This document shows, piece after piece, positions 5,306 through 59,521 of a stretch of 64,000 nucleotides of DNA. The notes under the pieces are model-generated. The model was not told the DNA's origin and made no database searches. It saw nothing but the letters and a program-made list of their open reading frames with translations. Origin of the DNA: Clostridia bacterium (GTDB lineage Bacteria > Bacillota > Clostridia > JAAYHZ01); NCBI GenBank assembly GCA_050950825.1, contig JBMNIH010000005.1, forward strand, positions 32,001 through 96,000, in the 5' to 3' direction. The position numbers and the translations under genes were made by a program. Position 1 is the stretch's first letter. The number at the start of each line of letters is the position of its first letter.

Positions 5306-5392
5306 TTATCTGTAATCGTCTCTTGCGAACAACAAGAGGAACAAGATGATGAAAAACAAAATACCGCAATTGTCTTTAAAAATACCTCCCAT
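5306..5392 (-). CDS. 28-aa single-TM micropeptide (paralog A)
   Basis: G-rich RBS; MGGIFKDNCGILFFIILFLLLFARDDYR*; clear homology to the adjacent peptide. Confidence 0.7.
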   Translation of the reverse strand: MGGIFKDNCGILFFIILFLLLFARDDYR

Positions 5393-5584
5393 TCCAACCC
5401 CCCCTTTATTCTTTGATAGTATATAATATTCTCATTATGTTAAGTTGTTCCTTAAATTTATGAAAACCTTTGTTCCGTACCGAACCGTGATTTTTTCTTG
5501 AAGAATTTGTGATTTTTTCAAAACAAATAAATCCGTGAAATTCACGGATGAAAAAAAGTTTGGATATAAAAAAAGAGCTGTCTT

Positions 5585-6676
5585 TTAAGACAACTCCAAT
5601 GCTTCTTTGATAAAGGATGGCCGGTATCCGTTTTCCACGCACCAGCGTATCGCCGTATCGAAGCGTTCGTAATAGTCCGGCATGTATTTTATATAATGGG
5701 GATAAAAATATTGCTCGTGGACGCAAAGCTCTTTGAAGGTATATAAAGGATGTTGTTTTTGGAATATCTCAAAATCCTTCGGAATATCCGACAGAGGGAT
5801 ATGCTGCATGGATGCACCGTATCGGACAAAGTATACGTCCTCTTGTTTGTCGTAGTAAAACCCGTATATGTTCAAAAGAGCGCACTGCTCCGCATTAAGA
5901 TAATAGCGGATGGATACGTTATCGGGGTCGTGATACCGAAAAGACCCTACAAACGCCTTTACTCCGCAGGATCGTAGGGCTCGTACCGTTTCAAGGGTGG
6001 CATCTCCCCAGTGAACGGTGGTGACCAAACGGGAAAAAGCTTCTTCTCCTGCAAAACGAATGATTTCATCGGCTACCCGCTCGTGCTCGAGCTTCACTTG
6101 GTCGAAGGTGCCTCGGATATAGGGGCGGTCGGGCAGATTGGCGTTTGCATGAAAAGAAAGCCTGAGCCAATCGGAATGGTATGCCCACTCGGACTTGAAT
6201 TTGTCCGGCATTTGGGTAAGATTGAAGCCTCCGAACTCCGGACACTCGTAATAGATATTCAAGTGAAATTTGGTACCGTATTTGTCGTGCATGGTTTTGA
6301 TAAGGTTCAAATACGGATCTTCAAATAGGGATTTGTAGTCCCTTTGTCGCTTTGCAAGGTTTTGAAAGCACCAAATGTTATCATCCAAAGAGAAACGATA
6401 CTTTTTATGGGCATTTTTTAGGTAAAAGACCTCGATAAAGGTTTCTTCTTTGCTATCTTCGTCCCTTGCAACAAGTCGGGTTTTGTACCCCTTCAAAAGG
6501 ACATCCGCCGTATATTGGCTAGTATTATAGGCGCAGGGAACACCGTTTATTGTTATACGCCTTCCTTGCGCAGCGTTTACAATACACCGTATCTTAAGTC
6601 CTTCCTCGGTCTTTTTACCGGCCGCATCCGTTAACATCACGCCGTCAACGGGAAATGCAAAAGAAATATCCGTCAT
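5585..6676 (-). CDS. Hypothetical protein, polysaccharide-deacetylase-like C-terminal barrel
   Basis: 363-aa ORF; FSLDDNI, LSFHA, VHWG, CVHEQY motifs resemble NodB-like metal sites. Confidence 0.55.
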   Translation of the reverse strand: MTDISFAFPVDGVMLTDAAGKKTEEGLKIRCIVNAAQGRRITINGVPCAYNTSQYTADVLLKGYKTRLVARDEDSKEETFIEVFYLKNAHKKYRFSLDDNIWCFQNLAKRQRDYKSLFEDPYLNLIKTMHDKYGTKFHLNIYYECPEFGGFNLTQMPDKFKSEWAYHSDWLRLSFHANANLPDRPYIRGTFDQVKLEHERVADEIIRFAGEEAFSRLVTTVHWGDATLETVRALRSCGVKAFVGSFRYHDPDNVSIRYYLNAEQCALLNIYGFYYDKQEDVYFVRYGASMQHIPLSDIPKDFEIFQKQHPLYTFKELCVHEQYFYPHYIKYMPDYYERFDTAIRWCVENGYRPSFIKEALELS

Positions 6677-6700
6677 ACGAAATACCCCCTTTATGTTTCG

Positions 6701-7381
6701 CTATAGAACCGTTTTCACAAAATCTCCTGCCGTAATGCTATCGTAAGTTACCATACAGTCCATCGCCAAGACGGCAACTCCCGCATCAAAAGCCGCCTTA
6801 AGTTCATCGGCGAAGGCTTTATGGGTCTTTCTATTCGGCGTGAAATAGGAAACATCCTTCATTTGTATGAGAAAAACCATCAGGGGCGAAAAGCCTTCCT
6901 TCATACTTGCCGCAAGCTCCTTGATATGCTTGACCCCTCTTTCGGTAGGCGCATCCGGAAACAGCACCACATCGTTTTCTTCTAACGTCACGCCCTTTAC
7001 TTCCGTTAAAATCTTTTGCTTTTTCGTTTCTATGAGAAAATCAAAGCGGGAGCTTTTGTACGTAAATTCCCTTTTAATGCTTGTAATCTCCCGCTCTTCT
7101 TTATGCTCCATAAGCCATTCATAAAAAACGGTATTCGGCGCTTGGCTGTCGATATTCACCAACCGATTGCCCTTTACAACCGTGATTAGATCGTAAGAGG
7201 TCTTTCGGGTTTCTTTCATTACTTCCTGCACGTAAATTTCGGCGTTTTTCACCAAAAGCTCCTTGCATCGTCCGGTGTTCTTTACATGGCATACGGAAGG
7301 CTTTCCGTCTACGATGATATTGGCAATAAAACGGTTCGGCCGATCGATAAAAACCGCCTTTTTTACGTTTTCATACTTCAT
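6701..7381 (-). CDS. sfsA: DNA/RNA nuclease SfsA
   Basis: RPNRF, HVKNTGR, SRFDF, EVKGVTL, FPDAPTERGVKH. Confidence 0.93.
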   Translation of the reverse strand: MKYENVKKAVFIDRPNRFIANIIVDGKPSVCHVKNTGRCKELLVKNAEIYVQEVMKETRKTSYDLITVVKGNRLVNIDSQAPNTVFYEWLMEHKEEREITSIKREFTYKSSRFDFLIETKKQKILTEVKGVTLEENDVVLFPDAPTERGVKHIKELAASMKEGFSPLMVFLIQMKDVSYFTPNRKTHKAFADELKAAFDAGVAVLAMDCMVTYDSITAGDFVKTVL

Positions 7382-40606: not shown

Positions 40607-42472
40607 ATGTTAAAAAAACAACTGCAAGGAATCTGTCTGCTACTGGCGGCAATGCTACTGTTGGCATCGGTAGGCTGTACGGGGTCGGAGGTGGAACCGG
40701 AAGCAACCTCAGAAACAACCGTAACTTCAAAGCAAGCTGTCGTAACTACAACGGCAGGCGTAACGACGACGACAAAAACGGAGACAACGACCCAAGCGGT
40801 AGAGGAGAATCCTTTTGAGGAATTCTATGAAATTTCCTGGATATTCGGCTTTTGCGATACTTACGTAGAAGGCGCATACGACGAGCTGATGATCGAAGAA
40901 AGATATAACATCGATCTTAAGTGCTGGAATATCAGCTACTACGACACGGAAGGTCTTACCATGATGTTAGCCGCCGGAGACATACCGGATTTCAGTAACC
41001 TTGCAAGAGGCGGAAAAACACCTCAGCAATTGTACGAAGAAGGCTACACAAGATCCGTATCCTTGGATATGTACAAAAAGTACTTCCCCTATTATTATGA
41101 ATTGATGCAAAATCATGCGCCTACAAGCTTTGAACGAAATAATATCCGAGGTACCGAGGAATATTACGGAATCTCTTGGGTCCGAAGCAACTACAAGATG
41201 TTTTACAACGCTCCTTTGTTCAGGCTTGATTGGCTTGAAAATATCGGTTATTCCATTCCCGAAGAAGAGCTTATTCCCATTGTACTGACATCCGAAAAAC
41301 TGGCAAAATACAGCGGCCAAACCTACATAACAACGTATATGTTCGAACACGATGAGCTAAACGACATCTTCCGTGCATTCACCGAGGACGACCCGGACGG
41401 AAACGGAGAAGACGATACTTATGCCGCCGTGATTAACCCGAACACATTCAGAAACGTGTGGGTGGACCTGTATTGGGGTCAATTCGGGGTCATTTCTTCG
41501 GAAGCCAACTATTTATATCTGGATGAGATCACGGGCGATGTGGTTCCTTGGTTTGCATACACCGGGTACAGGGACTATGTCATATGGGCATCGGATATGT
41601 ACCGTAAAGGCTATATGCGAACTCTTCCTGACGGTACTTTCTACGACATCCTTCTGGCTACCTGGATGACAGGCAAAGTCGGTTACTTTAATGCGGACAG
41701 ACAATACATCGCAAGACCCGATGCTCCGGACTATTCCGACAGGCAGCCTCCCCAAGGTCTATGGCTTCGAGGCGAAGAAGACGCTACTTTCGTGATGATG
41801 CCTTGCTTGAAAGGCCCCGGAAAGTCATGGGGAAACAAAAGATATGTTCTTGACGCGTTTATTGACGGTGCAGGAGGCACTACCGTTATCGGAGCCCAAG
41901 TTTCCGACGGAAAATTGGCGAGAATTCTGACCATCTATAATGATTATAACGTTAACAAAGACGATCCTTGGTTCCGTCAAGTCTACCAAGGAATTGAAGG
42001 CGTACATTTTACATGGTCCGGCGAACCTTGGAACAGCTCGAAGATCACAACTCCCGAGGAACTCATACCTCCGAAATATCGAAGAGGCGGATCGAACATC
42101 GGCGTAGGGGCTTTCTCTCCCGATCCGAACCTTTATGTTCATGAAGCTTACAGACAAATCTGGCTCATCCATATCGAAGACCGCTGGGTGGAAAAATACG
42201 CAATTCATCCGTACAAATTCATCAGCTTGTTGGATATGGGAGAAGATCTGTATAACAAGTATAACGAAGCTTGGGCGGAAATCAGCCCCCAACTGAATCC
42301 GATTATCAATGACTTTGCGAACCGCACTTGGAACGGCGAAATCGCCAACATCAATACGGAGTGGGAGGAATACCTCAATCGGTTATACGCGGCAGGCTTG
42401 GAAGATTTGATCCGCGACTACTATATGAACGATAACTTCCGATTGTACACACCTCCTGAAATATACGAATAA
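40607..42472 (+). CDS. Extracellular solute-binding lipoprotein (carbohydrate ABC type)
   Basis: Lipobox SVGC, Thr-rich linker, LAAGDIPD, RLDWLE, DPDGNG.DDT, YQGIEGVH. Confidence 0.8.
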   Translation: MLKKQLQGICLLLAAMLLLASVGCTGSEVEPEATSETTVTSKQAVVTTTAGVTTTTKTETTTQAVEENPFEEFYEISWIFGFCDTYVEGAYDELMIEERYNIDLKCWNISYYDTEGLTMMLAAGDIPDFSNLARGGKTPQQLYEEGYTRSVSLDMYKKYFPYYYELMQNHAPTSFERNNIRGTEEYYGISWVRSNYKMFYNAPLFRLDWLENIGYSIPEEELIPIVLTSEKLAKYSGQTYITTYMFEHDELNDIFRAFTEDDPDGNGEDDTYAAVINPNTFRNVWVDLYWGQFGVISSEANYLYLDEITGDVVPWFAYTGYRDYVIWASDMYRKGYMRTLPDGTFYDILLATWMTGKVGYFNADRQYIARPDAPDYSDRQPPQGLWLRGEEDATFVMMPCLKGPGKSWGNKRYVLDAFIDGAGGTTVIGAQVSDGKLARILTIYNDYNVNKDDPWFRQVYQGIEGVHFTWSGEPWNSSKITTPEELIPPKYRRGGSNIGVGAFSPDPNLYVHEAYRQIWLIHIEDRWVEKYAIHPYKFISLLDMGEDLYNKYNEAWAEISPQLNPIINDFANRTWNGEIANINTEWEEYLNRLYAAGLEDLIRDYYMNDNFRLYTPPEIYE

Positions 42473-43778: not shown

Positions 43779-43938
43779 CCGCCCTACCTCCAAAAGATCG
43801 TGTGCGTTGGTACCTTTATTGTACATTAAAAATTCTCATCTTGCAGTATGGACTTTCTATTCTTTCTATATATAATATTCTTAAATGAGGCAAATCAGGT
43901 TTTTTCAAGAAGAAAAAGTAAAATGCCGAGAGGTTCCT

Positions 43939-45513
43939 ATGCAAAATATTGATCGAATCCAAGAAACCGCTTATCAACTGATTTTAGAATTTTTAACCGG
44001 TGAAGAAAAACCGATTCCCCGTTTCGACCTTAACGACGAAACGGCGCTTTTGAACCTGTTATATAACCGCAAAGTTCTGTTTGCTTTGTCGCCTCTTTTG
44101 GAAAAAAAGCTTTCCGCACCTTCCGTAACCAAAATGAAGGTTCTAACGGCTCATCATAAGAACGTAATTCGGAAAAGGCTTTCCGTTGCAAAAGAGGTGA
44201 TGGATACCGCCATAGAAAACCGTATCCCTTGCGTCTTCATCAAAGGCATGGCTTTATCCCGGCTCATATACGAAGACATATACATAAGACCGGGTAACGA
44301 TTTGGATTTTTGGACGGGCCCCGAATATGCATTGCCCCTTGCAGAAATCTTATTACAAAAAGACTTCTATATCAGCGGCCGCCCGGATCCGAAGACCGGG
44401 AAGGCGGAAAAAATTAAAAAGCCCGTTATGATTCCGGGCTCCTACTATTACGAATACACCGTAGAAAAGGAAGTCGACGGTTTTTCCATAAAAGCGGAGA
44501 TTAAAAAGCTATCCAGCGCCTTGCTATTCTTAAAGAACAGTCCCTATCGGGAAAACATGCTCCAATACACGGAAGAAATCGATTTGGAAGGAAACCGGTT
44601 TGTAACAAGCGATTTGGAATATACCCTTCTTCATTTGTGCGCAAACACATATGTTAATACCGAAAGCGAATTCGGCGTCCTTCATTCTCATCATTGGATC
44701 GATTACATGGATTTGTACCTTTTCTTAAAAAAGTATCAAAATGCTCTGGATTGGAAAAAGGTAAAAGAGCACGGAGAAAACTTGGGCATAACCCATCGAA
44801 TCTACAAAACCTTTAACGACGTCAAAGAATTGTTCGGTTTTCCGATGGACGAATCGATTATCGGACAGTTTACCTTTAACCCCGAAAATGTTACGCATGA
44901 AAGGGTATTCCCGAGCGGTTCCTTAACCGATTGGAAAATGAGCATCAAGGAAAGGTTTTTCTACCCTAAGGAACGGATTATCGAATACTATAAAGGTATA
45001 AGAGCCGAAAAATTCCGACAAGAATACGTAGAAAAAAGCACGTATCGGGTAGAAACAATCGACGACAATCCTCCTTTCTTACGGATGGCGGATGAAGCGG
45101 GGATTGATTACGCCGATTTAAGAATATATAAAGACGATAAAGGACTCTATTTTCATTTGGATCTTGCCGAGGTTGTTAAGAAAAATCCTACGGATTATCA
45201 AGTGCTTTTGTCCTTGTTCAATAACGACATGGAATCCGACGTCTACCAAACCGTCATCCGAACCCATTACGACTCCAACGGCATCTACGCCGATTTGGAG
45301 GATCACAAGCACAAAACGACCGACGCCCTAACGGCGGTGCAAAAGGATGACAGTATTCTTTTACATATCCCCTTCGACAGCATAATCGGGTGGAAAAAAA
45401 GGCTTCTTGCCTTCTCCATCTATTTTTTCAAAAAGATCGAAAACGGTGCCTACGATTACACGGCAGGGGTTATAAAGTCCGATTTGGAAAAAGCAAAGTA
45501 CATCCGGTTCTGA
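43939..45513 (+). CDS. Nucleotidyltransferase family protein (NTP_transf_5-like)
   Basis: IKGMALS..Y....R.GNDLDF motif; LLHLC..; DLY, LDW C-terminal pattern. Confidence 0.75.
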   Translation: MQNIDRIQETAYQLILEFLTGEEKPIPRFDLNDETALLNLLYNRKVLFALSPLLEKKLSAPSVTKMKVLTAHHKNVIRKRLSVAKEVMDTAIENRIPCVFIKGMALSRLIYEDIYIRPGNDLDFWTGPEYALPLAEILLQKDFYISGRPDPKTGKAEKIKKPVMIPGSYYYEYTVEKEVDGFSIKAEIKKLSSALLFLKNSPYRENMLQYTEEIDLEGNRFVTSDLEYTLLHLCANTYVNTESEFGVLHSHHWIDYMDLYLFLKKYQNALDWKKVKEHGENLGITHRIYKTFNDVKELFGFPMDESIIGQFTFNPENVTHERVFPSGSLTDWKMSIKERFFYPKERIIEYYKGIRAEKFRQEYVEKSTYRVETIDDNPPFLRMADEAGIDYADLRIYKDDKGLYFHLDLAEVVKKNPTDYQVLLSLFNNDMESDVYQTVIRTHYDSNGIYADLEDHKHKTTDALTAVQKDDSILLHIPFDSIIGWKKRLLAFSIYFFKKIENGAYDYTAGVIKSDLEKAKYIRF

Positions 45514-48189: not shown

Positions 48190-49482
48190 TTACTGCTCGA
48201 TTTGGATTTCAAACCAAAAGAGGCTTCCTTTCCCCTCTTCGGTTTCCACTCCGTAGGTACCGTCGTGCATCTCGATAATCTTTTTGACAATGGAAAGACC
48301 TAAGCCCGTACCCATAATGGGCCGCTTATGATTCTTATCCACCTTATAATACCGATCCCGGATATAGGGTAAATCGCTCTTTCGAATCCCTTCTCCTTTG
48401 TCGATGACTTCGATTCTTACGTTTTTATCGTTTGTTCTTTGCCGTACCAAAACCGTTTTGTCTTCTCCGCTGTGGGTTATGGCATTGAGAAGAAGGTTAT
48501 ATAATACTTGGGTGATTTTCACCTCGTCGGCAACTACGCCAACATCCTCGAAGGCTTCAAACTCCAGCCGATAACCCTCGTGCTTTACAAGCTCGTTCAT
48601 CCGGTTGACGGTTCGTTTTAAGCTCTCCGTCAAGTTGTAGCTCATCTTGTTCAGCTTCGATACCCCCGCTTCAAGTAAAGAAATGTCCGGCATATCGTTC
48701 ACCAAGGAGGTTAATCGTTTTGTTTCGTCCATAATGATTTGACTTTGGTCCGGCGTAACCTCGTCCGGGAAGTCGTGCATCATCTCCGCATAGCTGTATA
48801 TGAGAGCAAGAGGGGTACGCAAATCGTGGGAGACGTTTGCAATCAGCTCCCGCCGCAGCCGCTCCGTCTTCGAAAGCTCGGTAGCCGCCGTGTTTAACGT
48901 ATCCGACAATTCCTTGATTTCCAAATACCCTTTCCCGCGAAATTCCGTGTCGTAGTTTCCCTTTGCCAATGCTTTTGCGCTTTGGTTGATTTTCTCAATG
49001 GGCTTGGATATGTGCTTGGCGATGAGGATGGCAAGCATGGTTGCCAAAAGCACCATCATCCCCGTAATGATAACAAGCCGGATTTGCAGGGTGGACACGG
49101 TGGAATCGACCGGGGTTATCATGGCGTGAAAGGTAAGCGATATCTTTTTGCCGTCCTCCAAAACAAACTCCCGGACCGAGGTTATGGTCTCCGGTCCGTT
49201 TTTATGTCTTCCCGGCGCAGGGAGAGAAGGAGGATAAAATTCTTGAGTCGGCCTTACGGTAATGGCTTTGGACGCTTCCAGCTCAAGCAGTATATTCCCT
49301 AGCTCCGGATTGTTAATATTTTTCTCCACCGTCTGAATCGCTTTTTCCATCTCCATCTTACGAACGAATTTATACATGTCGCTTAAAAAAACCGTCTGAA
49401 AAATCCACAGGATGGCCAAAAGCAATACGCAAAACCCCAGGAGAAAAATAAATATTTTCCATTTTAATTTCAGCTTATCCAT
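48190..49482 (-). CDS. HAMP-domain sensor histidine kinase
   Basis: 2 TMs, HAMP, SHDLRTPL, NLLLNA, D.GEGI, GTGLGL. Confidence 0.92.
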   Translation of the reverse strand: MDKLKLKWKIFIFLLGFCVLLLAILWIFQTVFLSDMYKFVRKMEMEKAIQTVEKNINNPELGNILLELEASKAITVRPTQEFYPPSLPAPGRHKNGPETITSVREFVLEDGKKISLTFHAMITPVDSTVSTLQIRLVIITGMMVLLATMLAILIAKHISKPIEKINQSAKALAKGNYDTEFRGKGYLEIKELSDTLNTAATELSKTERLRRELIANVSHDLRTPLALIYSYAEMMHDFPDEVTPDQSQIIMDETKRLTSLVNDMPDISLLEAGVSKLNKMSYNLTESLKRTVNRMNELVKHEGYRLEFEAFEDVGVVADEVKITQVLYNLLLNAITHSGEDKTVLVRQRTNDKNVRIEVIDKGEGIRKSDLPYIRDRYYKVDKNHKRPIMGTGLGLSIVKKIIEMHDGTYGVETEEGKGSLFWFEIQIEQ

Positions 49483-50161
49483 CGAATCGATACCCCAGCC
49501 CGCGAAGGGTTTTTATATACTGTGCATAGGGGCCTAAGGATTTTCTTAGCAATTTCATATGGGTATCCAACGTTCGGTCGTCGCCGTAGTAGTTAAAGCC
49601 CCACACCTCCGTCATAATCTTTTCCCTTGGCACCGCTATGTTTTTATTCCGTATTAAGAAAAACAACAGGTCGTATTCTTTCGGCGACAAATTCACTTCC
49701 TCGCCGTCAATAAACACCTTGTATGCCGTCAAATCCGCTTTAAAGCCGTCTTTTTCGAAAACCACGTGGCCTTCGTCATCGGATTTTGCAGGCTTGCTTT
49801 TTTCCATACGGCGTAATATGGCGCCGATTCTCAGCATAATCTCCTTGGAAGAAAAGGGCTTTACCACGTAGTCGTCTACGCCGAGTTCAAAACCCAATAC
49901 CTTGTCATACTCTTCGCCCCGGGCGGACAGCATGATGATGGGAGTGTCCGAAAATTTACGAATTTCCTTTACGGCGGAAAAGCCGTCCATTCCCGGCATC
50001 ATGATATCCATAATGATGATGTCAAAATCGTTGTTTCGGCAAAGCTCTATGGCTTCCAAGCCGTCATCGGCTTCGAAAACCTCGTTGCCCTCGAAAACGG
50101 CATACCTTTTGATCACCGCTCGAAGGCCCGCTTCATCGTCGCATATTAGAATTTTTGCCAT
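49475..50161 (-). CDS. OmpR-family response regulator
   Basis: DD, DIMMP, KPF, LSPKEYDLL, RTLDTH, RGLGY. Confidence 0.93.
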   Translation of the reverse strand: MAKILICDDEAGLRAVIKRYAVFEGNEVFEADDGLEAIELCRNNDFDIIIMDIMMPGMDGFSAVKEIRKFSDTPIIMLSARGEEYDKVLGFELGVDDYVVKPFSSKEIMLRIGAILRRMEKSKPAKSDDEGHVVFEKDGFKADLTAYKVFIDGEEVNLSPKEYDLLFFLIRNKNIAVPREKIMTEVWGFNYYGDDRTLDTHMKLLRKSLGPYAQYIKTLRGLGYRFDG

Positions 50162-50249: not shown

Positions 50250-52307
50250 CTAATAGCTTCTTTTATACCGTGCCACAAATACCGTGGCGGCAACCGGTAA
50301 AAGAACAAGCACACCCGTGAGTATCGGCGAATTGCTTTGATTATCCCGTGATCTCGGTATATTTATATTCGTACGGTTTTGGGTCCGCCCTTCCCGGTTC
50401 TCTTGGCCTCCCGGAAAGAACCCTCCCTGTCCCGGGCCGCCTTGGGCCGGCATTTGTCGGTCGGGAACGGCTCTTTGTTGTCCGTCTTGGAAAAACCATC
50501 CAAACCCGCCTTCTTGTTGGAATCCTCCCGGAAACTCAAAATTTCTACCGTCTCTGCCTCCTAGCATGCTTCCTAATACGGACAGGTTCAAATTTCCCGC
50601 AGGCACCAACTTATTCGGATTTTGGGCCTGTTCCTGCGTTGTAGAAGGAACCGATCCGTCAAGCTGCCCTTGCACGCTTTGGGCGCGGAGATTCCCTAGG
50701 GTTATAAACGCGGAGACGGCCGTTTTGTATTCCTCGTAAGAGCAAAAGGCGGTAGGGTCGTTTTTCACGTATTCGGAAATCAAAGCGTCCAGCTCTTTGA
50801 TTTTCTGCTCGAACTTCCCTTCCGAGAAATAGTTGTCAACCAACCGCTGCAAATAGCCGTGGTAGCGATCCTTGTATTCTTCATCGGACAACAGCTTATC
50901 GATCAAAGGACGGCTTGCCATGCTCACACCGCTTACGGGCGTGTCAACGGGAAAGTTGATCACGGAAGAAGCGCTGCTGTTAAAGAATCCGCCCCAAGCA
51001 AGGTTGTAGTCCCAAGGCAGGACGGTAACTTTTCCGTCTCGCTCGTAAATATAGTAGTTTTGCGCCATTTGGGAGCTGTAGCTGTCCAAGTTCACAACAA
51101 AGGTATGTGCCGCCAAATAGCGTAATATCTTGTCGATGTCAAAGTACTTTTCAAGGTCTTTTCCTTCCGATAAAGCTTTGATCGCTTCGATAACGCGTAA
51201 ATAATCTTTTTCCGTTCCTTTTCCTACCGTGTTGTTAAAAATCGCCGGGTAGCTTTGGGGGTTGTCATCGATGTATTCCAAGCTGCCTCCCGAGCCTCCT
51301 CTCATGCCCATACCCCCGAAGTTCCAATTAAACCCGCCGTTATTATTCCATGCCGGCGGATTGAAATCATCCATTGCCGGCGGATTATTATCACTCGTCC
51401 CCGGAGGATTGTTTTGAGGAGGATTCATAAAAGGCCAAGCGTTTTGCTGCGGAAAACGCGGAGTATTCGAGTCGGAGGGTTCTCTTGTCTCGGGAGGCGA
51501 ATCGGAAGGCGAAAACCCTCTCGGAGGTGTCGACGGCGCCCCTCCTTCATTTCGAGGCCCCTGTTGAAAACCGGGATTCTGCTGAAACGCACCTCCGAAA
51601 GGCATTTGGGGCCATCCTTCTTGCCTGTTCGGCATGTTTTCTTGTTCTCCCCGTCCGAAATCGCCGATGTTTCCTCCGAATCCCGACATTTTTACGTTGT
51701 ACAGCATTCCTTTCGTATCGCCGAAAACCCGCTGTTCATAGCTGTCGTTATACAGTTCCACGGCAAGGTACAGTCCCCAAGGTTCACCGTTTACCTTAAC
51801 CTCCGCATAACCGAAATAGGGAGCGTCTACGCCGGCTTCACGCGTCAAATCGTAGGAGATATACTCCTTCATGTATGTATAATCCCCTAGCATGTTGTTG
51901 ATAACAAAGCTTTCCAGGCCGAAACAGGTCTGTTTTTTGACGTATTCGTTAAATTGAAGGCGAAAGCTGTATCGATCGCTGTTGGAGCTTGCCACTTGGG
52001 TTAAGCTGGAGTTCCCTTTGGGGCGAATGCCGATGTTCATAAATTTCGTGCCGTTTACAATCACATCCGCCATAATAAACTGCTCGTTGATGGCATTGTC
52101 CAGCATTTCCTGCCAGTCGTCTTCATCCGCGAGGATGTCAATGGAAATGATGTCGGTACCGAAAATCTTCCGCGCATACTCCGGTTCCGTTTTCAGATTC
52201 CCCTTTTGGGCTTCCGTATTCGCTACCGCCACAAGGGTAACGCTTACGGCCAAGGCGAAAATTACGGCAATCGCCACGACAATATGTATCTTATTATTCT
52301 TAATCAT
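50250..52307 (-). CDS. CotH kinase family protein, membrane-anchored
   Basis: GIRPKGNSS, GLYLAVE, NLDSY..NYY, LPWDYNLAWG; N- and C-terminal hydrophobic segments; P/G/Q-rich inserts. Confidence 0.88.
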   Translation of the reverse strand: MIKNNKIHIVVAIAVIFALAVSVTLVAVANTEAQKGNLKTEPEYARKIFGTDIISIDILADEDDWQEMLDNAINEQFIMADVIVNGTKFMNIGIRPKGNSSLTQVASSNSDRYSFRLQFNEYVKKQTCFGLESFVINNMLGDYTYMKEYISYDLTREAGVDAPYFGYAEVKVNGEPWGLYLAVELYNDSYEQRVFGDTKGMLYNVKMSGFGGNIGDFGRGEQENMPNRQEGWPQMPFGGAFQQNPGFQQGPRNEGGAPSTPPRGFSPSDSPPETREPSDSNTPRFPQQNAWPFMNPPQNNPPGTSDNNPPAMDDFNPPAWNNNGGFNWNFGGMGMRGGSGGSLEYIDDNPQSYPAIFNNTVGKGTEKDYLRVIEAIKALSEGKDLEKYFDIDKILRYLAAHTFVVNLDSYSSQMAQNYYIYERDGKVTVLPWDYNLAWGGFFNSSASSVINFPVDTPVSGVSMASRPLIDKLLSDEEYKDRYHGYLQRLVDNYFSEGKFEQKIKELDALISEYVKNDPTAFCSYEEYKTAVSAFITLGNLRAQSVQGQLDGSVPSTTQEQAQNPNKLVPAGNLNLSVLGSMLGGRDGRNFEFPGGFQQEGGFGWFFQDGQQRAVPDRQMPAQGGPGQGGFFPGGQENREGRTQNRTNINIPRSRDNQSNSPILTGVLVLLPVAATVFVARYKRSY

Positions 52308-52326
52308 GCTTTCACCCCATTAAACT

Positions 52327-52998
52327 TTAGTCGGCGTATTCGCCGTTGAAGCTTACAAGGCAAGCATTGTTCACTCCGTTTATCTTTAACAATTCATTTA
52401 AAAGCTTTGCCGACATGTCCAAAAGGCGTACTTCGACGGTAAGCTCGATGCCGTTTTTGGAAACGGTCTTCGATTTGATTATATTCTTCTTTGTTTTTTC
52501 CTTGATTAAATTCATGCAATCCTGCTCCGCTTTATCATCCGCAAGGTTCAGCACCACGATGTACGGCGTATCGGTGCTTTTCCTGTTTACGAAAATAAAG
52601 AGCATAAGACCGATGAATAGCGATCCGATGATGGCAAGCGGAATCAACCCCGCACCCAATACGATGCCCGCCGAAATCGCCCAGAACAAAAAGGCAATAT
52701 CCAAGGGCTCCTTAATGGCCGTTCGAAAACGAACAATGGATAACGCGCCTACCATACCGAGGGACAGCACCAAATTCGATGTGACCGCAAGGATGATGAG
52801 GGTAGTGATCATGGTCATCGCCATAATGGAAACACCGAAGGCCGCGGAGTACATGACCCCCGAATAGGTTTTTTTGTAAACGTAAAAGATAAACAGCCCG
52901 ATGGCGAAAGCAAGTAGCATGGCAAGGGCTACATCCAAAACGGAAAATTCAACGGCCTTTTCCAAAAAGCTCGATTTAAAAACATCTCGAAAAGTCAT
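52327..52998 (-). CDS. DUF4956 membrane protein
   Basis: SLGMVGALSIVRFRTAIKEP. Confidence 0.88.
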   Translation of the reverse strand: MTFRDVFKSSFLEKAVEFSVLDVALAMLLAFAIGLFIFYVYKKTYSGVMYSAAFGVSIMAMTMITTLIILAVTSNLVLSLGMVGALSIVRFRTAIKEPLDIAFLFWAISAGIVLGAGLIPLAIIGSLFIGLMLFIFVNRKSTDTPYIVVLNLADDKAEQDCMNLIKEKTKKNIIKSKTVSKNGIELTVEVRLLDMSAKLLNELLKINGVNNACLVSFNGEYAD

Positions 52999-53022
52999 AG
53001 CATTTCCTCCTCACAATCTCTT

Positions 53023-53700
53023 CTAAATATATCTTGCCGCTGCATATTTGGAAAACGACGTACTTTTTCTGCCGGAAAGCGAAACCGCACCTCGGATGAT
53101 TTCAGGCAAGAAGCTGTCGTACTTAACTTCGAGATTATACACGTCTTGAATGGGTATGGGAGCCGGTTCTTTTTTTAAGAAACCATAAACATTGGAGCCT
53201 GTTCGTATGTCGTAATCCAGCGTCACCCTCACGTTCCCCGGAGAGTATACAAACGCTTCGCGCCAATACTCCACAATGTTTTTCGGTCGAAGCTGCAGGT
53301 AAAACATTTTCGCATAAAGCTCCAAGCAGAAAGGATTCTCCTTTTCCTTTAAAACGGCATAATCCCCCGAAAGGAGCCTTTTGCAATCTTCCTCCGATAA
53401 AAGGGCACCTTCTTTATAGCATAAGCCGCCTTGCTTGCTCTTTTTTTCAAGGCGTATAAAAGAGGTATCGTTGTTGTACAACCTTAAGCGAAATTTCTCA
53501 CGCCCGTCTACTCCGTTGATTTTTTCCATTAACACTTTGTCGTTGTAATTATCGAAGTAGAGGCTTTTGACACGATAGCCGTATCCTTCCTTGGAGTTCT
53601 CATCCCGTTTTGCGATTAGGGAAAGCCGGGACCGAAGCTCCAACAAATCGGCGTAATTGATATAGTGCTTCAGCTCACGTCTGCCGCATGGTCGGCTCAT
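53023..53700 (-). CDS. VTC-domain (polyphosphate polymerase-like) protein
   Basis: RELKH, SLYFD, REKFRLRLY, LEKK, Y.REAF, RVTLD, LEVKY, SKY; RBS before ATG 53700. Confidence 0.88.
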   Translation of the reverse strand: MSRPCGRRELKHYINYADLLELRSRLSLIAKRDENSKEGYGYRVKSLYFDNYNDKVLMEKINGVDGREKFRLRLYNNDTSFIRLEKKSKQGGLCYKEGALLSEEDCKRLLSGDYAVLKEKENPFCLELYAKMFYLQLRPKNIVEYWREAFVYSPGNVRVTLDYDIRTGSNVYGFLKKEPAPIPIQDVYNLEVKYDSFLPEIIRGAVSLSGRKSTSFSKYAAARYI

Positions 53701-53731
53701 CCTCTCCTCTCCTTTCCTCTCGGATAAGTCC

Positions 53732-53785
53732 ATTATAGGCGATGAAACTGAAATGCATTTGTCCGTTATCTGAACTTTATCTGAA
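53732..53785 (-). promoter_or_regulatory. -10 box and tandem direct repeats (OmpR-type site) of the VTC operon
   Basis: TTCAGATAA twice with 11-nt period (53785-53777, 53774-53766) upstream of TATAAT (53737-53732). Confidence 0.55.
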
Positions 53786-53834
53786 AATTTTATAAAGAAT
53801 CCATATAAAAAAGTCAAGAAGAAAATATCCGGTA

Positions 53835-55223: not shown

Positions 55224-55248
55224 AAAAAGGAGTCGCTCGTGACTCCTT
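55224..55248 (-). terminator. Terminator closing the RiPP operon
   Basis: Minus strand AAGGAGTC-acgagc-GACTCCTT-TTT. Confidence 0.65.
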
Positions 55249-55316: not shown

Positions 55317-55790
55317 TTATTTTATCCTATGCTTCGAAAGCATGCAAATCCATTTGTAATATCGGCCTTTAAAAACTTGCTCCGTGTTTTTCACAACAAG
55401 AAACCTTTTATGCATCTTTAAAGAAAGAAAGACAATCAAAATGCTTTTTAAGCCGTAGGAGACCTTCTGCTCCGTTCCGTCGTCCCTGATTATTGTAACC
55501 ACCCTTCCGAAGCAATCCTTCGGATCAACGCTTTCGACGGCTACGGCATGGTCGCCTTTTATATACCACATATCCTTTTTCATTCGAACGATTCGGTGGG
55601 TAAGAAGCCTTCCTTTTTGATCAAAGGCGGTCACGATATCCCCTATTCGATAGCTTTCCGCTTTTTCAAGAACCACTTGATCCCCGGAGGATATGATAGG
55701 TTCCATACTGACTCCCTTCACCGTGATGCGATTGTTGTTTTGTCTTAATTGTATTTCGGTCAGAGCTTTATACAGATTGGTTTGATCCAT
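55317..55790 (-). CDS. S24/S26 family peptidase (Ser-His signal-peptidase-like)
   Basis: GVSMEP..SGD, GDIV, THRI, KGD. Confidence 0.85.
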   Translation of the reverse strand: MDQTNLYKALTEIQLRQNNNRITVKGVSMEPIISSGDQVVLEKAESYRIGDIVTAFDQKGRLLTHRIVRMKKDMWYIKGDHAVAVESVDPKDCFGRVVTIIRDDGTEQKVSYGLKSILIVFLSLKMHKRFLVVKNTEQVFKGRYYKWICMLSKHRIK

Positions 55791-56601
55791 GGACGGTTCC
55801 TCTTAAAACCTCTTCTACATAATCCATACGGCTGTAGTTTAATTCATGCGTTCCGGCCTTTGCAAGCTCAATCAACAATTGGACGAAAGAAGGATCCGGT
55901 TTTTGGACGGTATATTGATTCTTCAAAAGCATTAAAAACCCTTCCTGTGACGAGAGCGGGCTTAAAGCTTGGATATCCTTTGTTCTTGCGATCTTGAATA
56001 TTCCTGCCAATGAATACTCCGAGTTTTTATATGACGCGTATACGACCTTTCTCTTGATATCTCCGTACTCGAAAAACTCCCCTTCGACGTCGATTCCGCA
56101 ATTTGTTAAAACCTCCGCTCCGCCTTCTCTTAATTGGATCGGACGAGGAAAAGGAATGATTTTTTTATCTTTTTTACGTATAAGCGCCAAGTCGTCCGAC
56201 AAATAGTCGAATCCCCGCTTGACCAAATAGGCGGTGAGGGTGGATTTTCCGGATCCCGTAGTTCCGGTTAGGATAAAGGCTTTGCCGGATAAACCGACTA
56301 CGGCTCCGTGTATGGCAAGAATCTCCTCGTCTACGGTCGTGGATTCGAACAGAATGTTTTCTATGGCTTGCAAGGCATAGCCACGAGGGATTTTTATCGT
56401 GCTTCCTTGGCAAGTAAAAAGACCGATTTTTGCTTCGTAGGTAATCTCCACGGTCCGGTCTTCGGAGACAGTTTCAAGGCGCATCGGGTTTTGTATAAAG
56501 GGATTGTAGAAAGCATAGAGAATTCGGGTTAACGATTCATCGTCGGTATTCACAACAACAACGGGTTTTTGATAGGGGCGTTTGATTCGTATTTTATGCA
56601 T
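55768..56601 (-). CDS. HPr-kinase-like P-loop kinase (RiPP-associated)
   Basis: IHGAVV..G....GTTGSGKST..LSDD..PFP. Confidence 0.8.
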   Translation of the reverse strand: MHKIRIKRPYQKPVVVVNTDDESLTRILYAFYNPFIQNPMRLETVSEDRTVEITYEAKIGLFTCQGSTIKIPRGYALQAIENILFESTTVDEEILAIHGAVVGLSGKAFILTGTTGSGKSTLTAYLVKRGFDYLSDDLALIRKKDKKIIPFPRPIQLREGGAEVLTNCGIDVEGEFFEYGDIKRKVVYASYKNSEYSLAGIFKIARTKDIQALSPLSSQEGFLMLLKNQYTVQKPDPSFVQLLIELAKAGTHELNYSRMDYVEEVLRGTVHGSNQSV

Positions 56602-57625
56602 GTAGATCTTCCCTGCGCATAGTCAGTACGTTTTTTGCCACTTGTCTGGATATTTGCAGTTTTCGGAAATTGCAGTCCCCGTCATCGGCAAGATAATCCT
56701 TCGTAAGATGATATGCGGATGCGGCGCAGCCTCTTCCGCATAAGTTTTTGCTTATACATTTGTGGCATCCGTAGTCGCACTTTTGTCTTTCCGACAATAG
56801 CGATTGCAGCTCCTTCAGTTTTTCTTCCATGGAGTCGAAATCAAGCCGGTACAAGGAACCGACGGAAAATTCGGGTTCATACAAGTTTTGGCAAGGTTGA
56901 ATGTCTCCGTTGGATTTAACGCAGATACTCAGCCGGTCTAAATTAATTATGGAGCAATTAAAAGTGGCGTAAGGTACGGTAGTCTTAATCCCGTACTTTT
57001 CTTGAAGCTTCTCGATTTTTTCAATGACCTTCAGTTTTTCTTCGGGAGTCAGTTCGATTTCCCTCCAATACCGGTCCGCATGTCCCATTTTCTCCGCAAA
57101 TGCAAAGGAAGGCTTGCAATTGTTTTCAATTGCAAGCACAAAATACTCCTCAACTAAACTGAAATTAAGTCGAGAAACGGTCATTTTGATGATCGGAGAG
57201 ACCTTAGGCTGAAAAGAAGACAAATTTCTCATTGTCTTCATGTAACTGCCTTTTTCCCGAACCCTTGCGTTAGTTTCGTCATCGATACCGTCAATACTGA
57301 ACTGTACGGAGAAACGATCATCCGTTTCCAGTAGACGATAAAAACGGTCGCATCGTACGGTGCCGTTTGTCACCACGAAGAAAGACAATTCTTTGTGCTT
57401 TTCCATCACATCCAGAACCTGTCCCCACTGTCGGTGCAGCAACGGTTCGCCTCCGGAAATGTCAAAGATGGATAATCCGTATCTTTGATGAAAAGCAACA
57501 AGAAACTTTTCAAGCTCATCGGCCGGAATTTCCTGCAGTTCCCTTTTTGAGCCGGATGCGTTGTAGCAATGTCGGCAATTCAGATTGCACCTATTCGTAA
57601 TTTCCACATAGCAAGACCGTATCAT
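56594..57625 (-). CDS. Radical SAM/SPASM peptide maturase
   Basis: CNLNCRHC, SGGEPLL, TNG, SIDG; SPASM C..GDIQPC..CHKC..LCGRGC..C. Confidence 0.92.
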   Translation of the reverse strand: MIRSCYVEITNRCNLNCRHCYNASGSKRELQEIPADELEKFLVAFHQRYGLSIFDISGGEPLLHRQWGQVLDVMEKHKELSFFVVTNGTVRCDRFYRLLETDDRFSVQFSIDGIDDETNARVREKGSYMKTMRNLSSFQPKVSPIIKMTVSRLNFSLVEEYFVLAIENNCKPSFAFAEKMGHADRYWREIELTPEEKLKVIEKIEKLQEKYGIKTTVPYATFNCSIINLDRLSICVKSNGDIQPCQNLYEPEFSVGSLYRLDFDSMEEKLKELQSLLSERQKCDYGCHKCISKNLCGRGCAASAYHLTKDYLADDGDCNFRKLQISRQVAKNVLTMRREDLHA

Positions 57626-57906
57626 CCGACTGTTTCTTTCTCCGCTTTTTTCAGTAAACCGTTCTCTACAAACCGGTTTACCAATTCCTTAATGTCATTT
57701 TGAATAACGCTGCGTTCACCTTCGTACTTTTCAAGCAGCATGTCCGTAGCTTCTTCAAGATCCCTTTCGGTCTCAAAGCAGTTCAAGACATCCAAAGCTA
57801 TACCGTCTAACACCAGGGTATTCCCCGTGCTGCCGTCAAAGTATACACAGCCTTCTCCGTCGTCTAAGGGCATTTCCTCATAGACGATGCTCTTTATGAA
57901 CCTCAT
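57622..57906 (-). CDS. PqqD family RiPP recognition element (RRE)
   Basis: 94 aa; beta strands then L..KYE....IQNDI.E....F.E.GLL helical pattern; between precursor and rSAM. Confidence 0.85.
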   Translation of the reverse strand: MRFIKSIVYEEMPLDDGEGCVYFDGSTGNTLVLDGIALDVLNCFETERDLEEATDMLLEKYEGERSVIQNDIKELVNRFVENGLLKKAEKETVG

Positions 57907-58052
57907 AGAGCCATCCTACCTATGCGTATGAGATCACAAGCAACTCCATAGGTTGAGCATGCTCCGGAAACCACAACCTTATTGAGCTCATCCAACGTGA
58001 TGACCTCCATTGTCGGTTTCTGCCACTGCTTCTTGATCGTTTCTTGTTTCAT
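57903..58052 (-). CDS. 49-aa RiPP precursor peptide (unannotated)
   Basis: RBS AGGAGG (58066-58061); MKQETIKKQWQKPTMEVITLDELNKVVVSGACSTYGVACDLIRIGRMAL*; stop overlaps the PqqD start (ATGA). Confidence 0.82.
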   Translation of the reverse strand: MKQETIKKQWQKPTMEVITLDELNKVVVSGACSTYGVACDLIRIGRMAL

Positions 58053-58074
58053 TGTTCAATCCTCCTATCGATTA

Positions 58075-59136
58075 TTAGTGTATAATCTTTTTCAGTTGTC
58101 TTAAGGCAATATTGATTGAATCCGGTCGGATCTTGTAATAGGAGCGCTTGCCTTCGTTTCTTCTTTCCACCAATCCCGATTGGTACAAAATATCCAAATG
58201 GTGGGACAGGGAGGATAAGGGTAATCCCAATCGCTCCGCGATTTCACTGGCAAACAATTCCCCGTCTTTAATGGTTTTGATGATGCTTATTCGTGTTTCA
58301 TCGGTAAAGGCTTTGAAGAACGTAATTTCATCCTCGTGAATATCCTGTACGACCTGCAAGCCTCTATCGTAATCAAATCCTAAATATACATTCAAAGTCC
58401 GTCTATACATTCGATATTGTATGGTATAGGGTATGAAAAATCCTACGGCAAGTCGAACCGTTGTAAATCGGCCTGATTTTACAAGGCTTGCATAGTTATC
58501 GGACATCTTCATAAGCCGGCTGTCGCCGTAGGCTTCAAATCTTTTTCCGACGGTTTCATAATATTCATCGATCAATTTTCGGTGGTTATCGTACTCGATT
58601 TCCAACTCTCTTGCAAAGTCCGTCAATGATTTGACTATTTTTCGCTTCGTTCCTTCAGGGGATTCGATCAACGATAGCATGTTCCATTTCAGGTCCGCAT
58701 CCAAATTGATGCCGTCCAAAAACACCATTAACAGTTTCTTGTTTTCTAATAGGAATTGATAAAAGGAGTCGGGAAAATGATTCTTCGAATCATAAAAATC
58801 CAATAATTTTATTTGCAATTCATCGGTGTCGATATCGTTAAAAGCATTGATTAACTCCTCAATGGATTCACCGTTCACCAACGATTCCGCCATTAAATTA
58901 GGAAAAAAGGTCATTCCGTTATCACATGTGTGAAAAAAAAGGCGAATCAAAGGAAGGTCATTTTTTATGTATTCTCGTAAACGAGAATACGCGGTTTTAA
59001 CATTTCGCGGCACAGAGAGGTCATAATCGGTATAGATTTCATCAAGATTTTTGCACCGCGTTAACAGATTAAGAAGAGCAGTAAAATCATAAATTTTACC
59101 CTTCTCCGGCTCGTACAAGTATGTTATGTCATTCAT
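58075..59136 (-). CDS. ArsR/SmtB-family regulator with large N-terminal domain
   Basis: C-terminal FKAFTDETRISI..EIAERLGL..SSLSHHL..L..SGLV..EG...YY. Confidence 0.85.
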   Translation of the reverse strand: MNDITYLYEPEKGKIYDFTALLNLLTRCKNLDEIYTDYDLSVPRNVKTAYSRLREYIKNDLPLIRLFFHTCDNGMTFFPNLMAESLVNGESIEELINAFNDIDTDELQIKLLDFYDSKNHFPDSFYQFLLENKKLLMVFLDGINLDADLKWNMLSLIESPEGTKRKIVKSLTDFARELEIEYDNHRKLIDEYYETVGKRFEAYGDSRLMKMSDNYASLVKSGRFTTVRLAVGFFIPYTIQYRMYRRTLNVYLGFDYDRGLQVVQDIHEDEITFFKAFTDETRISIIKTIKDGELFASEIAERLGLPLSSLSHHLDILYQSGLVERRNEGKRSYYKIRPDSINIALRQLKKIIH

Positions 59137-59327
59137 TATATTACCTCAAAAATATTATCAATGATAATGGAAAACACGAACCAAAACAGTTCGATCGGTT
59201 ATCTGTCGTAATTTTTTCGTATAATTTTATATTTTTCTTTAGTAACGACCGATAAATTCATTAATATCGCCTAAATTGGTTGATATCCCCTAAAAATCTT
59301 CCTTTATTTTACCTCACATCGAAATTA

Positions 59328-59355
59328 ATTATATCATTCCTTTGTTTAAATTCAA
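59328..59355 (-). promoter_or_regulatory. sigmaA promoter for the ArsR-RiPP operon
   Basis: TTGAAT-16nt-TATAAT with extended TGn. Confidence 0.5.
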
Positions 59356-59521
59356 TCACTTTATTACTAAAATCTTGATTTTTAGCACAAATTTATTTTT
59401 AAAAATGTTAAATTTCTGCCTTCAAGCCTTATATATCCCCGTTACCACTACAGTTCCGAAGGGTTTTATGGTAAGATGGAAAAAATAATTTCAACATCAA
59501 AGAACAGCGGAGATACCATAC

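Follow-up and report, generated by a model that had tools for sequence, protein, structure and literature searches.

The stretch of DNA analyzed here, which we call the window, has 64,000 nucleotides (nt) and comes from a Clostridia bacterium (contig JBMNIH010000005.1, positions 32,001 to 96,000). The genome was obtained from an anaerobic digester. It has 3.55 Mb in 11 contigs and is 97% complete by marker genes. Positions 55317-59136 of the window contain, on the minus strand, an operon for a peptide that is synthesized ribosomally and then modified post-translationally (RiPP). It consists of six intact and co-oriented open reading frames (ORFs), which code for a regulator, a precursor peptide, a RiPP recognition element (RRE), a radical SAM/SPASM enzyme, a kinase and a peptidase. 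A prediction made from the sequence alone had proposed these six genes with these assignments; the ORF listing gives the same coordinates, and both the domain matches and the conserved motifs agree. The operon is real and intact, and it is the minimal six-gene form of an uncharacterized family.

The first gene (58075-59136, minus strand, like all the others in the operon) codes for a 353 amino acid regulator of the ArsR/SmtB type, with a helical N-terminal domain of about 255 amino acids and a C-terminal winged helix-turn-helix (HTH). A gap of 22 nt follows, which contains an AGGAGG ribosome-binding site with normal spacing before the next gene. This is the small ORF (57903-58052) for the precursor, a 49 amino acid peptide (MKQETIKKQWQKPTMEVITLDELNKVVVSGACSTYGVACDLIRIGRMAL) with a leader (residues 1-31) and a predicted core (residues 32-49). 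The next genes code for a discrete RRE of the PqqD family (57622-57906, 94 amino acids, PF05402), a radical SAM/SPASM enzyme without an N-terminal RRE domain (56594-57625, 343 amino acids), a HprK-like P-loop kinase (55768-56601, 277 amino acids, with H98, G118-K119-S-T121, D136-D137 and R158) and a leader peptidase similar to signal peptidase I, of the archaeal/SipW type in the S24/S26 clan (55317-55790, 157 amino acids, with S28, H65 and D80). As had been noticed before, the last five genes overlap successively, by 4, 4, 8 and 23 nt. This gene set is more than a chance arrangement, because the kinase, the peptidase and PqqD also co-occur with the radical SAM enzyme in related loci.

The operon had also been placed between a promoter and a terminator. 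Both signals are present in the sequence, but the promoter does not stand out statistically. A promoter-like site (TTGAAT-16-TGnTATAAT, 59328-59355, minus strand) lies upstream of the regulator gene, at a distance of about 190 nt, in an intergenic region with 30% GC, and is the best-scoring site in this region. It is a consensus match only: the complete scan gives 11 sites, compared with 9.9 ± 2.6 in shuffled sequences, so there is no enrichment and the best site is not significant by itself. The ends of RNA-library contigs near 59281-59312 are a weak hint in its favor. At the other end, a terminator-like hairpin (55227-55248, minus strand), with a stem of 8-9 bp followed by TTTTTAT, is found 69 nt past the stop codon of the peptidase gene. 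Sites of this class, a hairpin plus a T-run, appear 10 times in the scan, compared with 4.7 ± 1.8, and the depth of the RNA-library contigs (contigs being the only data here) drops past the hairpin. Just 5′ of the -35 element there is an 11 nt inverted repeat, 91% complementary, with 13 nt between its arms (59385-59419). The surrounding region is AT-rich, and the repeat may be an operator for the ArsR-like protein.

The conservation of its sequence shows the small ORF to be a genuine precursor. Starting from it, a jackhmmer search recovers 37 small ORFs, which belong to 31 of the 80 loci that we have kept: 29 of the 54 loci of the family, as defined below, and two additional loci, L055 and L056. 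Many of the loci without a precursor match are cut by contig ends. When the window precursor and that of the closely related locus L085 are added, 39 precursors are available. The leader motif WxxP is present in 37 of them. In 38, a Ser is found exactly 23 residues after the Trp, with a Cys 2-8 residues after this Ser, A/G/S at position Ser-2 and A/V/L/I/S at position Ser-4; the exception in all these counts is a degenerate ORF in L017. The residues at Ser-2 and Ser-4 agree with what the (-3,-1) rule requires for signal peptidase I. In an alignment of 34 precursors, the only invariant positions correspond to W10 and P13 of the window precursor, which form its leader motif W10-x-x-P13, and to S33 and C39 in its core. 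This alignment omits L017, the atypical ORF 5354-5548 of L056, L047, L050, and also L021 9693-9839, since its core is identical to that of L022 8511-8657.

The precursor family is large. A profile search of 1.84 billion representatives gives 307 cluster-representative proteins at E ≤ 1e-3. Among the best 150 of these 307 there are 148 short proteins: 143 have WxxP with a Ser at +23, and 141 of these 143 have a Cys 1-8 residues later. In these short proteins the residue before the Ser is most often Arg (56), Cys (49) or Trp (14), the C-terminal residue is Arg in 105, and the median core has 12 residues. Core lengths across the family range from 9 to 30 residues, with two fixed positions, the Ser and the Cys. 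Two long matches of the profile, P0122 and P0223, are repeat proteins in which WxxP is absent at the matched places, and we have judged them to be due to chance. The aligned precursors are not covered by NCBIfam, since none of the 34 reaches any cut-off; residues 7-19 of the window precursor give a weak match to NF033524 (E 1.6e-3). A stop-to-stop six-frame search of the loci for additional precursors gives only noise (E > 0.3), and no precursor is found in the 812 nt available upstream of the PqqD gene of L008. According to a reading of the alignment by eye, cores of type 1 mostly have an aromatic residue at position Ser+2, while cores of type 2 have no conserved aromatic residue at this position.

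The domains expected for the RRE, the radical SAM enzyme and the peptidase are found with PF05402, PF04055 and PF00717, respectively, but the expected SPASM model (PF13186) gives no score in the window protein, and the kinase stays far below the cut-off of its family model. The RRE (PF05402, E 4.6e-10) is the only PqqD in the genome. The best matches of its family profile are B1 RREs of lasso peptides: TbiB1 (9.2e-10), TfuB1 (1.4e-6) and PbaB1 (9x90, 7.1e-6). The value for LppB (9x8z) is 4.6e-5. This protein belongs to the clusters of linear polyphosphorylated peptides (LPP), which were first described in 2026, in Bacilli, as products of linear form (Popov et al. 2026, Nat Commun, PMC13381572).

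The peptidase (PF00717, E 8.9e-8) has as best NCBIfam models SipW and TIGR02228, the archaeal-type signal peptidase I, with 42.4 bits for the latter against a cut-off of 51.85. A comparison of its sequence with the PDB gives no meaningful match. All 46 homologues (the best match per locus at E < 1e-5) keep the motifs G-x-S28-M-x-P, H65-R66 and K78-G79-D80 unchanged, and this Ser/His/Asp arrangement is that of signal peptidases of the endoplasmic reticulum/archaeal type. When the sequence is read by eye no hydrophobic N-terminal stretch is visible, so the enzyme would work in the cytoplasm. In related loci the peptidase is fused either to PqqD (for example, L012 5276-5998) or to a nucleotidyltransferase, depending on the gene arrangement. 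The fusion with PqqD is independent support for the cooperation of peptidase and RRE. A predicted complex of three chains (peptidase, RRE and precursor) has a score of 0.49, with 0.08 for the best control. This is weak support: the mark used is reached by 58 of 80 solved complexes and by 2 of 110 mismatches, scores up to 0.60 are considered weak passes, and the complex was already a likely guess before the prediction. The partners have a pLDDT of at least 87, and the runs agree in at least 90% of contacts. The proposal that the signal-peptidase-like enzyme is the leader protease, which formed part of the original prediction, is well founded: the triad is invariant, most relatives have the enzyme fused to the RRE, and LppS is an experimental precedent in the main text of the LPP paper (PMC13381572).

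The radical SAM enzyme matches PF04055 with an E of 6.7e-19. We assign a SPASM domain to it because of an invariant pattern of seven Cys (C224..G240..C245, C287xxC290x5C296x3C300, C318) and an end-to-end alignment to SPASM families. Both this pattern and the CX3CX2C motif (C13/C17/C20) are invariant in 28 sequences: the window enzyme and 27 others, chosen from 57 close cluster representatives. A full seven-Cys SPASM domain together with an invariant Cys in the substrate is the usual signature of thioether maturases, such as SkfB, CteB and PapB. When the profile is compared with solved structures the best match is SkfB (1.6e-27), followed by anSME, PqqE and CteB. The leading NCBIfam models are MftC, ScmE, NirJ2 and PapB, all far under their cut-offs; MftC (TIGR03962), for example, gives 96 bits against 265, with residues 8-320 of 343 aligned. 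An action on a peptide had been predicted. The closest solved and curated relatives (SkfB, PqqE, CteB, MftC and PapB) are peptide maturases, which suggests that this enzyme acts on a peptide.

The kinase is the only HprK-related gene in the genome. Its match to HprK_rel_A (TIGR04352) covers only the P-loop region, with 73 bits against a cut-off of 200; TIGR00679 (35 bits) and a partial match to PF07475 are also under the cut-off. All 44 homologues have H98, G118, K119, T121, D137 and R158, and 41 of them also have D136 (ORFs shorter than 200 amino acids were dropped from this set). The AlphaFold2 (AF2) model has a pLDDT of 93.4 and a fold similar to that of phosphoenolpyruvate (PEP) carboxykinase. 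The best Foldseek match is a PEP carboxykinase (E 1.4e-7, TMq about 0.6), and among the 50 matches listed there are PEP carboxykinases and no HPr kinase. The HprK label is given because of the sequence motifs.

The regulator is recognized by the ArsR/SmtB HTH model NF033788 with 74.6 bits (cut-off 55), in residues 272-342 only. In its AF2 model (pLDDT 90.3), residues 1-220 form a helical N-terminal domain, and there are also a small sheet and an ArsR winged HTH. Structural matches (Foldseek, VIA-align) correspond to solved ArsR repressors and cover residues 260-353 only; the N-terminal domain was not folded alone. We have rejected an Atlas lead (0.86) which identified this domain as DUF5937, as none of 26 family members matches PF19361. 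Of the 55 related loci, 37 have a homologue of the regulator, and its gene is usually located immediately upstream of that of the precursor.

The family has been delimited with the radical SAM enzyme. Of 1761 candidates, 123 proteins reach E ≤ 1e-10, and 57 cluster representatives have at least 190 bits, with 34-99% identity; beyond them, identity is 30% or less. A scan of species-representative genomes gives the 80 loci already mentioned. Fifty-four of them (L001-L054) are members of the family, with 33-53% identity, and their hosts are almost all metagenome-assembled genomes of Clostridia from gut, rumen and faeces. The family is present in 2 of 3 genomes of the small order to which the window belongs, and in at least 9 of 400 in an even sample of its class, a lower bound, as five candidates per genome were scored at most. 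These frequencies indicate a patchy distribution. A close relative, the genome G001, has two copies of the family, one of which is L085. The 54 loci and L085 form the 55 related loci used here.

The gene content of these loci has been obtained by a BLAST comparison of the proteins of the window and its relatives with all ORFs of the 55 loci. A subset of 29 loci has at least 4 kb on both sides, and we call these loci full. PqqD is almost universal (54 of 55 loci, 29 of 29 full loci), and the kinase (47 and 26) and the peptidase (46 and 25) are nearly as frequent. A nucleotidyltransferase of the PF14907 type (NTase) is found in 41 loci and 26 full loci, the ArsR-like regulator in 37 and 24, a 391 amino acid protein with a PP-binding domain in 23 and 14, and an ABC exporter in 18 and 12. 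The precursor is present in 30 of 55 loci and in 23 of 29 full loci: homologous cassettes do conserve the small ORF, as was expected of a real precursor.

Three architectures may be distinguished. Architecture A, found in the window, L001 and L085, has the order regulator, precursor, RRE, radical SAM enzyme, kinase and peptidase, with the NTase as the next gene in L085. L008 also has this architecture, without regulator or precursor in its available stretch. In architecture B, the most common one, a kinase, a peptidase~PqqD fusion, the radical SAM enzyme and further genes are accompanied by a divergent regulator-precursor pair. Architecture C, found in ten loci, contains the RRE, the kinase, a peptidase~NTase fusion, the regulator, the radical SAM enzyme and two precursors. 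In architectures A and B, the regulator gene comes before that of the precursor.

Some additional genes in these loci should be mentioned. The protein with the PP-binding domain is frequent in clusters of architecture B. In L012 (7021-8196, plus strand) it is found between the radical SAM and NTase genes, with the phosphopantetheine-attachment domain at its N-terminus. L055 and L056 contain a second, distant radical SAM enzyme (27-29% identical), in two genomes which already have a member of the family. That of L056 adjoins another ArsR-like/precursor pair and a longer ORF which resembles a precursor, but has YxxP in place of WxxP and contains several Cys; the coordinates in L056 are 5354-5548 and 5965-7005, both on the plus strand.

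The window stretch is present in 20 sequencing runs from 18 studies, labelled as digester, biogas, bioreactor, sludge or simply metagenome. Six of the 20 are RNA libraries. In four of these, the word depth of the contigs is 2-163 over 55.3-59.2 kb, while in the flanking bins, which contain aldehyde dehydrogenase and PHP genes, it is mostly 0-4, with isolated bins up to 20. Stretches without cover by RNA contigs, such as 54.4-54.9 kb in X7, prove nothing. A single RNA-library contig of 2635 nt extends from the peptidase gene to the 3′ end of the regulator gene.

This contig is also informative about strain variation. It has 36 differences from the window, 25 of them concentrated in 173 nt (57885-58057), with 20 inside the precursor gene. 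As a result, 10 of the 49 amino acids of the precursor are changed, three in the leader and seven after the Ser; W10, P13, C32, S33 and C39 are all kept. A second study has the same precursor allele over the part which its contig covers. L021 and L022 are a similar case: the RRE, the kinase, the peptidase~NTase, the regulator and the radical SAM enzyme, five cluster proteins in all, match at 1802 of 1804 residues. Their precursors (L021 8152-8268 and L022 6970-7086) are identical at 33 of 38 residues, and all five changes, read by eye, are in the core. The precursor core is a hotspot of strain variation, as in bacteriocins and pherotype signals, and the operon family is under selection: the core varies, while the enzymes are identical or nearly so.

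The data show the genes and how they are conserved, a precursor family with invariant residues, the catalytic motifs of the enzymes, the gene fusions, and the occurrence of the operon in RNA libraries. From them we infer the chemistry of every step, the precise place of the cut, the sequence in which the steps occur and the biological role. The PqqD RRE would bind the leader through W10-x-x-P13 and present the peptide to the three enzymes. The kinase would phosphorylate Ser33, perhaps repeatedly; this residue, at W+23, is two residues past the predicted cut and may be compared with Ser3 of LPP. The SPASM enzyme itself lacks an RRE domain; it would use the same RRE and form an intramolecular cross-link through Cys39, for which a thioether is the most likely form. 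Docked on the complex of RRE and leader, the peptidase would cut after a run of small residues (V-S-G-A|C-S) and free the 18-residue core 32-49. The cut A31|C32 is favored because V-S-G-A|C-S follows the (-3,-1) pattern. Finally, the ArsR-like protein would control the operon.

The operon very probably makes a short modified peptide by a phosphorylation pathway joined to radical SAM cross-linking. As for the family, we favor, with somewhat better than even confidence, a combination of an LPP-type module (precursor, discrete RRE, HprK-like kinase and peptidase similar to signal peptidase I) with a radical SAM/SPASM enzyme and an ArsR-type regulator. A product with a phosphoserine and a Cys thioether is the best-supported guess from sequence and analogy, and we would place it just on the probable side.

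Several points weigh against this combined pathway. Phosphorylation and radical cross-linking are both deduced from an invariant Ser and an invariant Cys, and neither the radical SAM enzyme nor the kinase reaches the cut-off of any curated family, so their chemistry cannot be read from homology. The spacing between Ser and Cys varies from 1 to 8 residues, which would be unusual if these two residues were bridged to each other. The window operon lacks two genes of its relatives, the NTase (in 26 of 29 full loci) and the exporter (in 12 of 29). L049, a whole contig of 12,041 nt, contains the RRE, the radical SAM enzyme, the regulator, the precursor and two ABC transporter genes, without kinase or peptidase, yet its precursor keeps the Ser: this residue may therefore serve the radical SAM step or the cleavage, not phosphorylation. 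A WxxP leader is disfavored by RREs of the LppB type and preferred by those of the paeninodin type. The LPP cleavage site given in the main text of PMC13381572 (F-E-T|x-x-S) breaks the (-3,-1) rule, so that the cut in the window precursor could be one residue earlier, with the Ser at +3, as in LPP. In addition, RNA-library contigs may hold DNA, and say nothing on the ends or levels of transcripts.

An alternative keeps the rest of the pathway (RRE, kinase acting on Ser33 and leader peptidase) and changes only the reaction of the radical SAM enzyme, which would not form a thioether. It would make a C-C or C-O link to an aromatic residue at core position 4, an epimerization, an oxidation of Cys or Ser similar to that of anSME, or some other change. 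The best curated match of the enzyme, MftC, carries out C-C bond formation and decarboxylation, anSME is its second-best solved relative, the spacing between Ser and Cys is variable, and most type-1 cores have the aromatic residue at the appropriate place. Nevertheless, type-2 cores lack it, only the Ser and the Cys are invariant in the core, and the seven-Cys SPASM domain with an invariant substrate Cys is typical of thioether maturases. We consider this alternative unlikely, although it is the most serious competitor of a phosphorylated thioether peptide.

An invariant Ser and an invariant Cys are also what a lanthionine needs. The phosphate of Ser33 might be eliminated to give dehydroalanine, to which Cys39 would add, forming a ring of the lanthionine type, and the radical SAM enzyme would have another role or would help the elimination. 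Lanthipeptide synthetases of classes III and IV, which use a kinase step followed by elimination, are a precedent for this chemistry. However, domain searches find no lyase or cyclase domain in the six proteins, and no role would be left for the radical SAM enzyme, although no other gene of the family is so well conserved. Besides, the phosphates of LPP remain on the Ser, according to the main text of PMC13381572. Such a ring is improbable.

Nor does a function inside the cell, as a peptide-derived cofactor or a ligand of the regulator, comparable to mycofactocin or pyrroloquinoline quinone (PQQ) and not secreted, appear any more probable; we would rank it slightly lower. It would agree with the lack of an exporter in the window operon, with MftC as the best curated match and with the tight linkage of the regulator and precursor genes. 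But 18 of the 55 related loci have an exporter, the core, unlike that of cofactor precursors, is hypervariable from strain to strain, there is no conserved C-terminal residue, and 96 bits is far from the 265 required for MftC.

The least probable explanation is that the window copy is a decaying remnant, which has lost the NTase and the exporter and gives no finished product: the NTase does follow the peptidase in the closest relative, L085, is present in nearly all full relatives, and its place in the window is taken by a terminator, but all six frames are intact with their catalytic residues, contig depth is raised in four RNA libraries, L004, L008 and L013 also have no NTase match (L008 and L013 with only about 1.1 kb upstream of the radical SAM gene), and in LPP a deletion of lppN left the detected products unchanged, according to the main text of PMC13381572.

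The combination of phosphorylation and radical cross-linking is the reading that we keep. The window operon shows the LPP module coupled to a radical SAM/SPASM enzyme, and this coupling defines a large family, with 307 precursor cluster representatives and 54 loci in species-representative genomes, most of them from Clostridia of the gut, the rumen and digesters. The cores are short, with 9-30 residues and two fixed positions, which makes the chemistry of the product easy to test. A core that is hypervariable where the enzymes are identical points to a part in conflict or recognition between strains of anaerobic communities. A bolder proposal, which we regard as doubtful, is a new RiPP class whose peptides have both a thioether ring made by the radical SAM enzyme and, at core position 2, a (poly)phosphoserine. 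Its members would be strain-specific signals or narrow-spectrum weapons, and each core would be matched to its producer through a regulator whose N-terminal domain senses the peptide.

Other genes of the window may be briefly described. The only PF14907 (NTP_transf_5) protein of the genome, with 542 amino acids, is coded at 43885-45513, on the plus strand, opposite to the operon and 9.8 kb from it. It is 21-30% identical to the NTases linked to clusters, and the comparison with the NTase of L085 gives 26% over 271 amino acids (E 7e-22). Judging from these values, it could be a detached partner similar to LppN, or it could be unrelated. On the minus strand, 50250-53817 contains three co-oriented genes, for a CotH kinase-domain protein (685 amino acids), a DUF4956 protein (223 amino acids) and a VTC-domain protein (264 amino acids). 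This trio adjoins the downstream neighbor of the operon, and a two-component system (48190-50161) is found downstream of the CotH gene. An ORF of 621 amino acids (40607-42472, plus strand) matches no Pfam family at E ≤ 1e-4.

The operon may be compared with several known systems. The mycofactocin system (MftA/B/C/E) also combines a peptidase and a radical SAM/SPASM enzyme with a small precursor and with a PqqD-like RRE that is a discrete protein, and MftC is the top NCBIfam match. The low score of the window enzyme, the presence of a kinase, the hypervariable core and a precursor which ends in M-A-L, not in Val-Tyr, set the two apart. The maturases of sactipeptides and ranthipeptides (SkfB, CteB, PapB, StsB, AlbA) resemble the window system in their C-terminal domain with auxiliary clusters, in a dedicated peptidase and in an RRE-dependent precursor with a core Cys as candidate sulfur donor. 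On the other hand, the RRE of the window is a separate protein and not an N-terminal domain, its radical SAM enzyme has 52-83 bits against curated maturase cut-offs of 300-850, and those systems have neither the kinase nor the peptidase similar to signal peptidase I.

Judging by NCBIfam names, HprK-like proteins, PqqD and radical SAM/SPASM enzymes are also found together in the SynChlorMet (ScmC/D/E/F), HprK-related kinase A and GeoRSP cassettes. To our knowledge, these cassettes are uncharacterized. The window proteins remain far from their models: ScmE 91 of 400 bits, ScmF 78 of 400, ScmC 18 of 125, HprK_rel_A 73 of 200, GeoRSP_rSAM 59 of 400 and geo_PqqD 17 of 100. We have found no paper on a pathway with a radical SAM enzyme, a HprK-like kinase and an RRE, and the accessible text of two genome-mining papers mentions HPr kinases only within lasso clusters.

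Phosphorylated lasso peptides (paeninodin, with PadeK; pseudomycoidin, with PsmK/PsmN) share with the window operon the WxxP leader, an RRE of the B1 type and a HprK-like kinase, and, in the case of its relatives, the NTase. It had been noted that the operon contains no lasso cyclase or exporter, and neither is found among the six genes: domain searches of the six proteins give no lasso cyclase and no B2 domain. PF13471, the transglutaminase-type B2 protease of lasso systems, has no match in the 97% complete genome; the cyclase family was not searched genome-wide. The phospho-acceptor of lasso peptides is a C-terminal Ser, according to the available part of the source, while the invariant Ser of the window family is at core position 2.

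The closest system is that of the LPP clusters, compared here as they are described in the main text of PMC13381572. The original prediction knew of no characterized product for this enzyme set. In the literature searched this is still the case when the radical SAM enzyme is included, but the module of kinase, RRE and peptidase was characterized as LPP in 2026. The LPP gene set is lppA-K-B-S-D-N, and it includes a precursor, the HprK kinase LppK, the RRE LppB, the SipW-like peptidase LppS, an exporter and a NTP transferase. LppK adds up to four phosphates to core Ser3. LppS, with a triad S29/H68/D93, is the leader peptidase, which is active only with LppB, and an unphosphorylated precursor is poorly cut. 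In that main text, the terms radical SAM, rSAM, SPASM, thioether and ArsR do not occur.

The two systems also differ. In the window operon the genes of the RRE and the kinase have a radical SAM/SPASM gene between them, with translational coupling, there is a linked ArsR-like regulator, and neither the LppN-type NTP transferase nor the MsbA-like exporter LppD is present. The leader of the window family has WxxP, not YxxP, the distance from Trp to Ser is +23 and not +19, and HQxIxFET is absent (the LPP consensus is YxxPxVLxHQxIxFET|xxS). The cores are short, with a median of 12 amino acids, and contain Cys, compared with 45 amino acids and more in LPP, and the hosts are Clostridia from gut and digesters instead of Bacilli. 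In spite of these differences, the window operon, like LPP, contains a HprK-like kinase, a discrete RRE beside the peptidase and a peptidase similar to signal peptidase I with Ser/His/Asp. A [Y/W]xxP leader is common to both systems, as is a conserved Ser 2-3 residues past the cleavage site, which in the window family is a predicted one. Finally, the relatives of the window operon also resemble LPP: most have an NTase of the PF14907 type, and some an ABC exporter.

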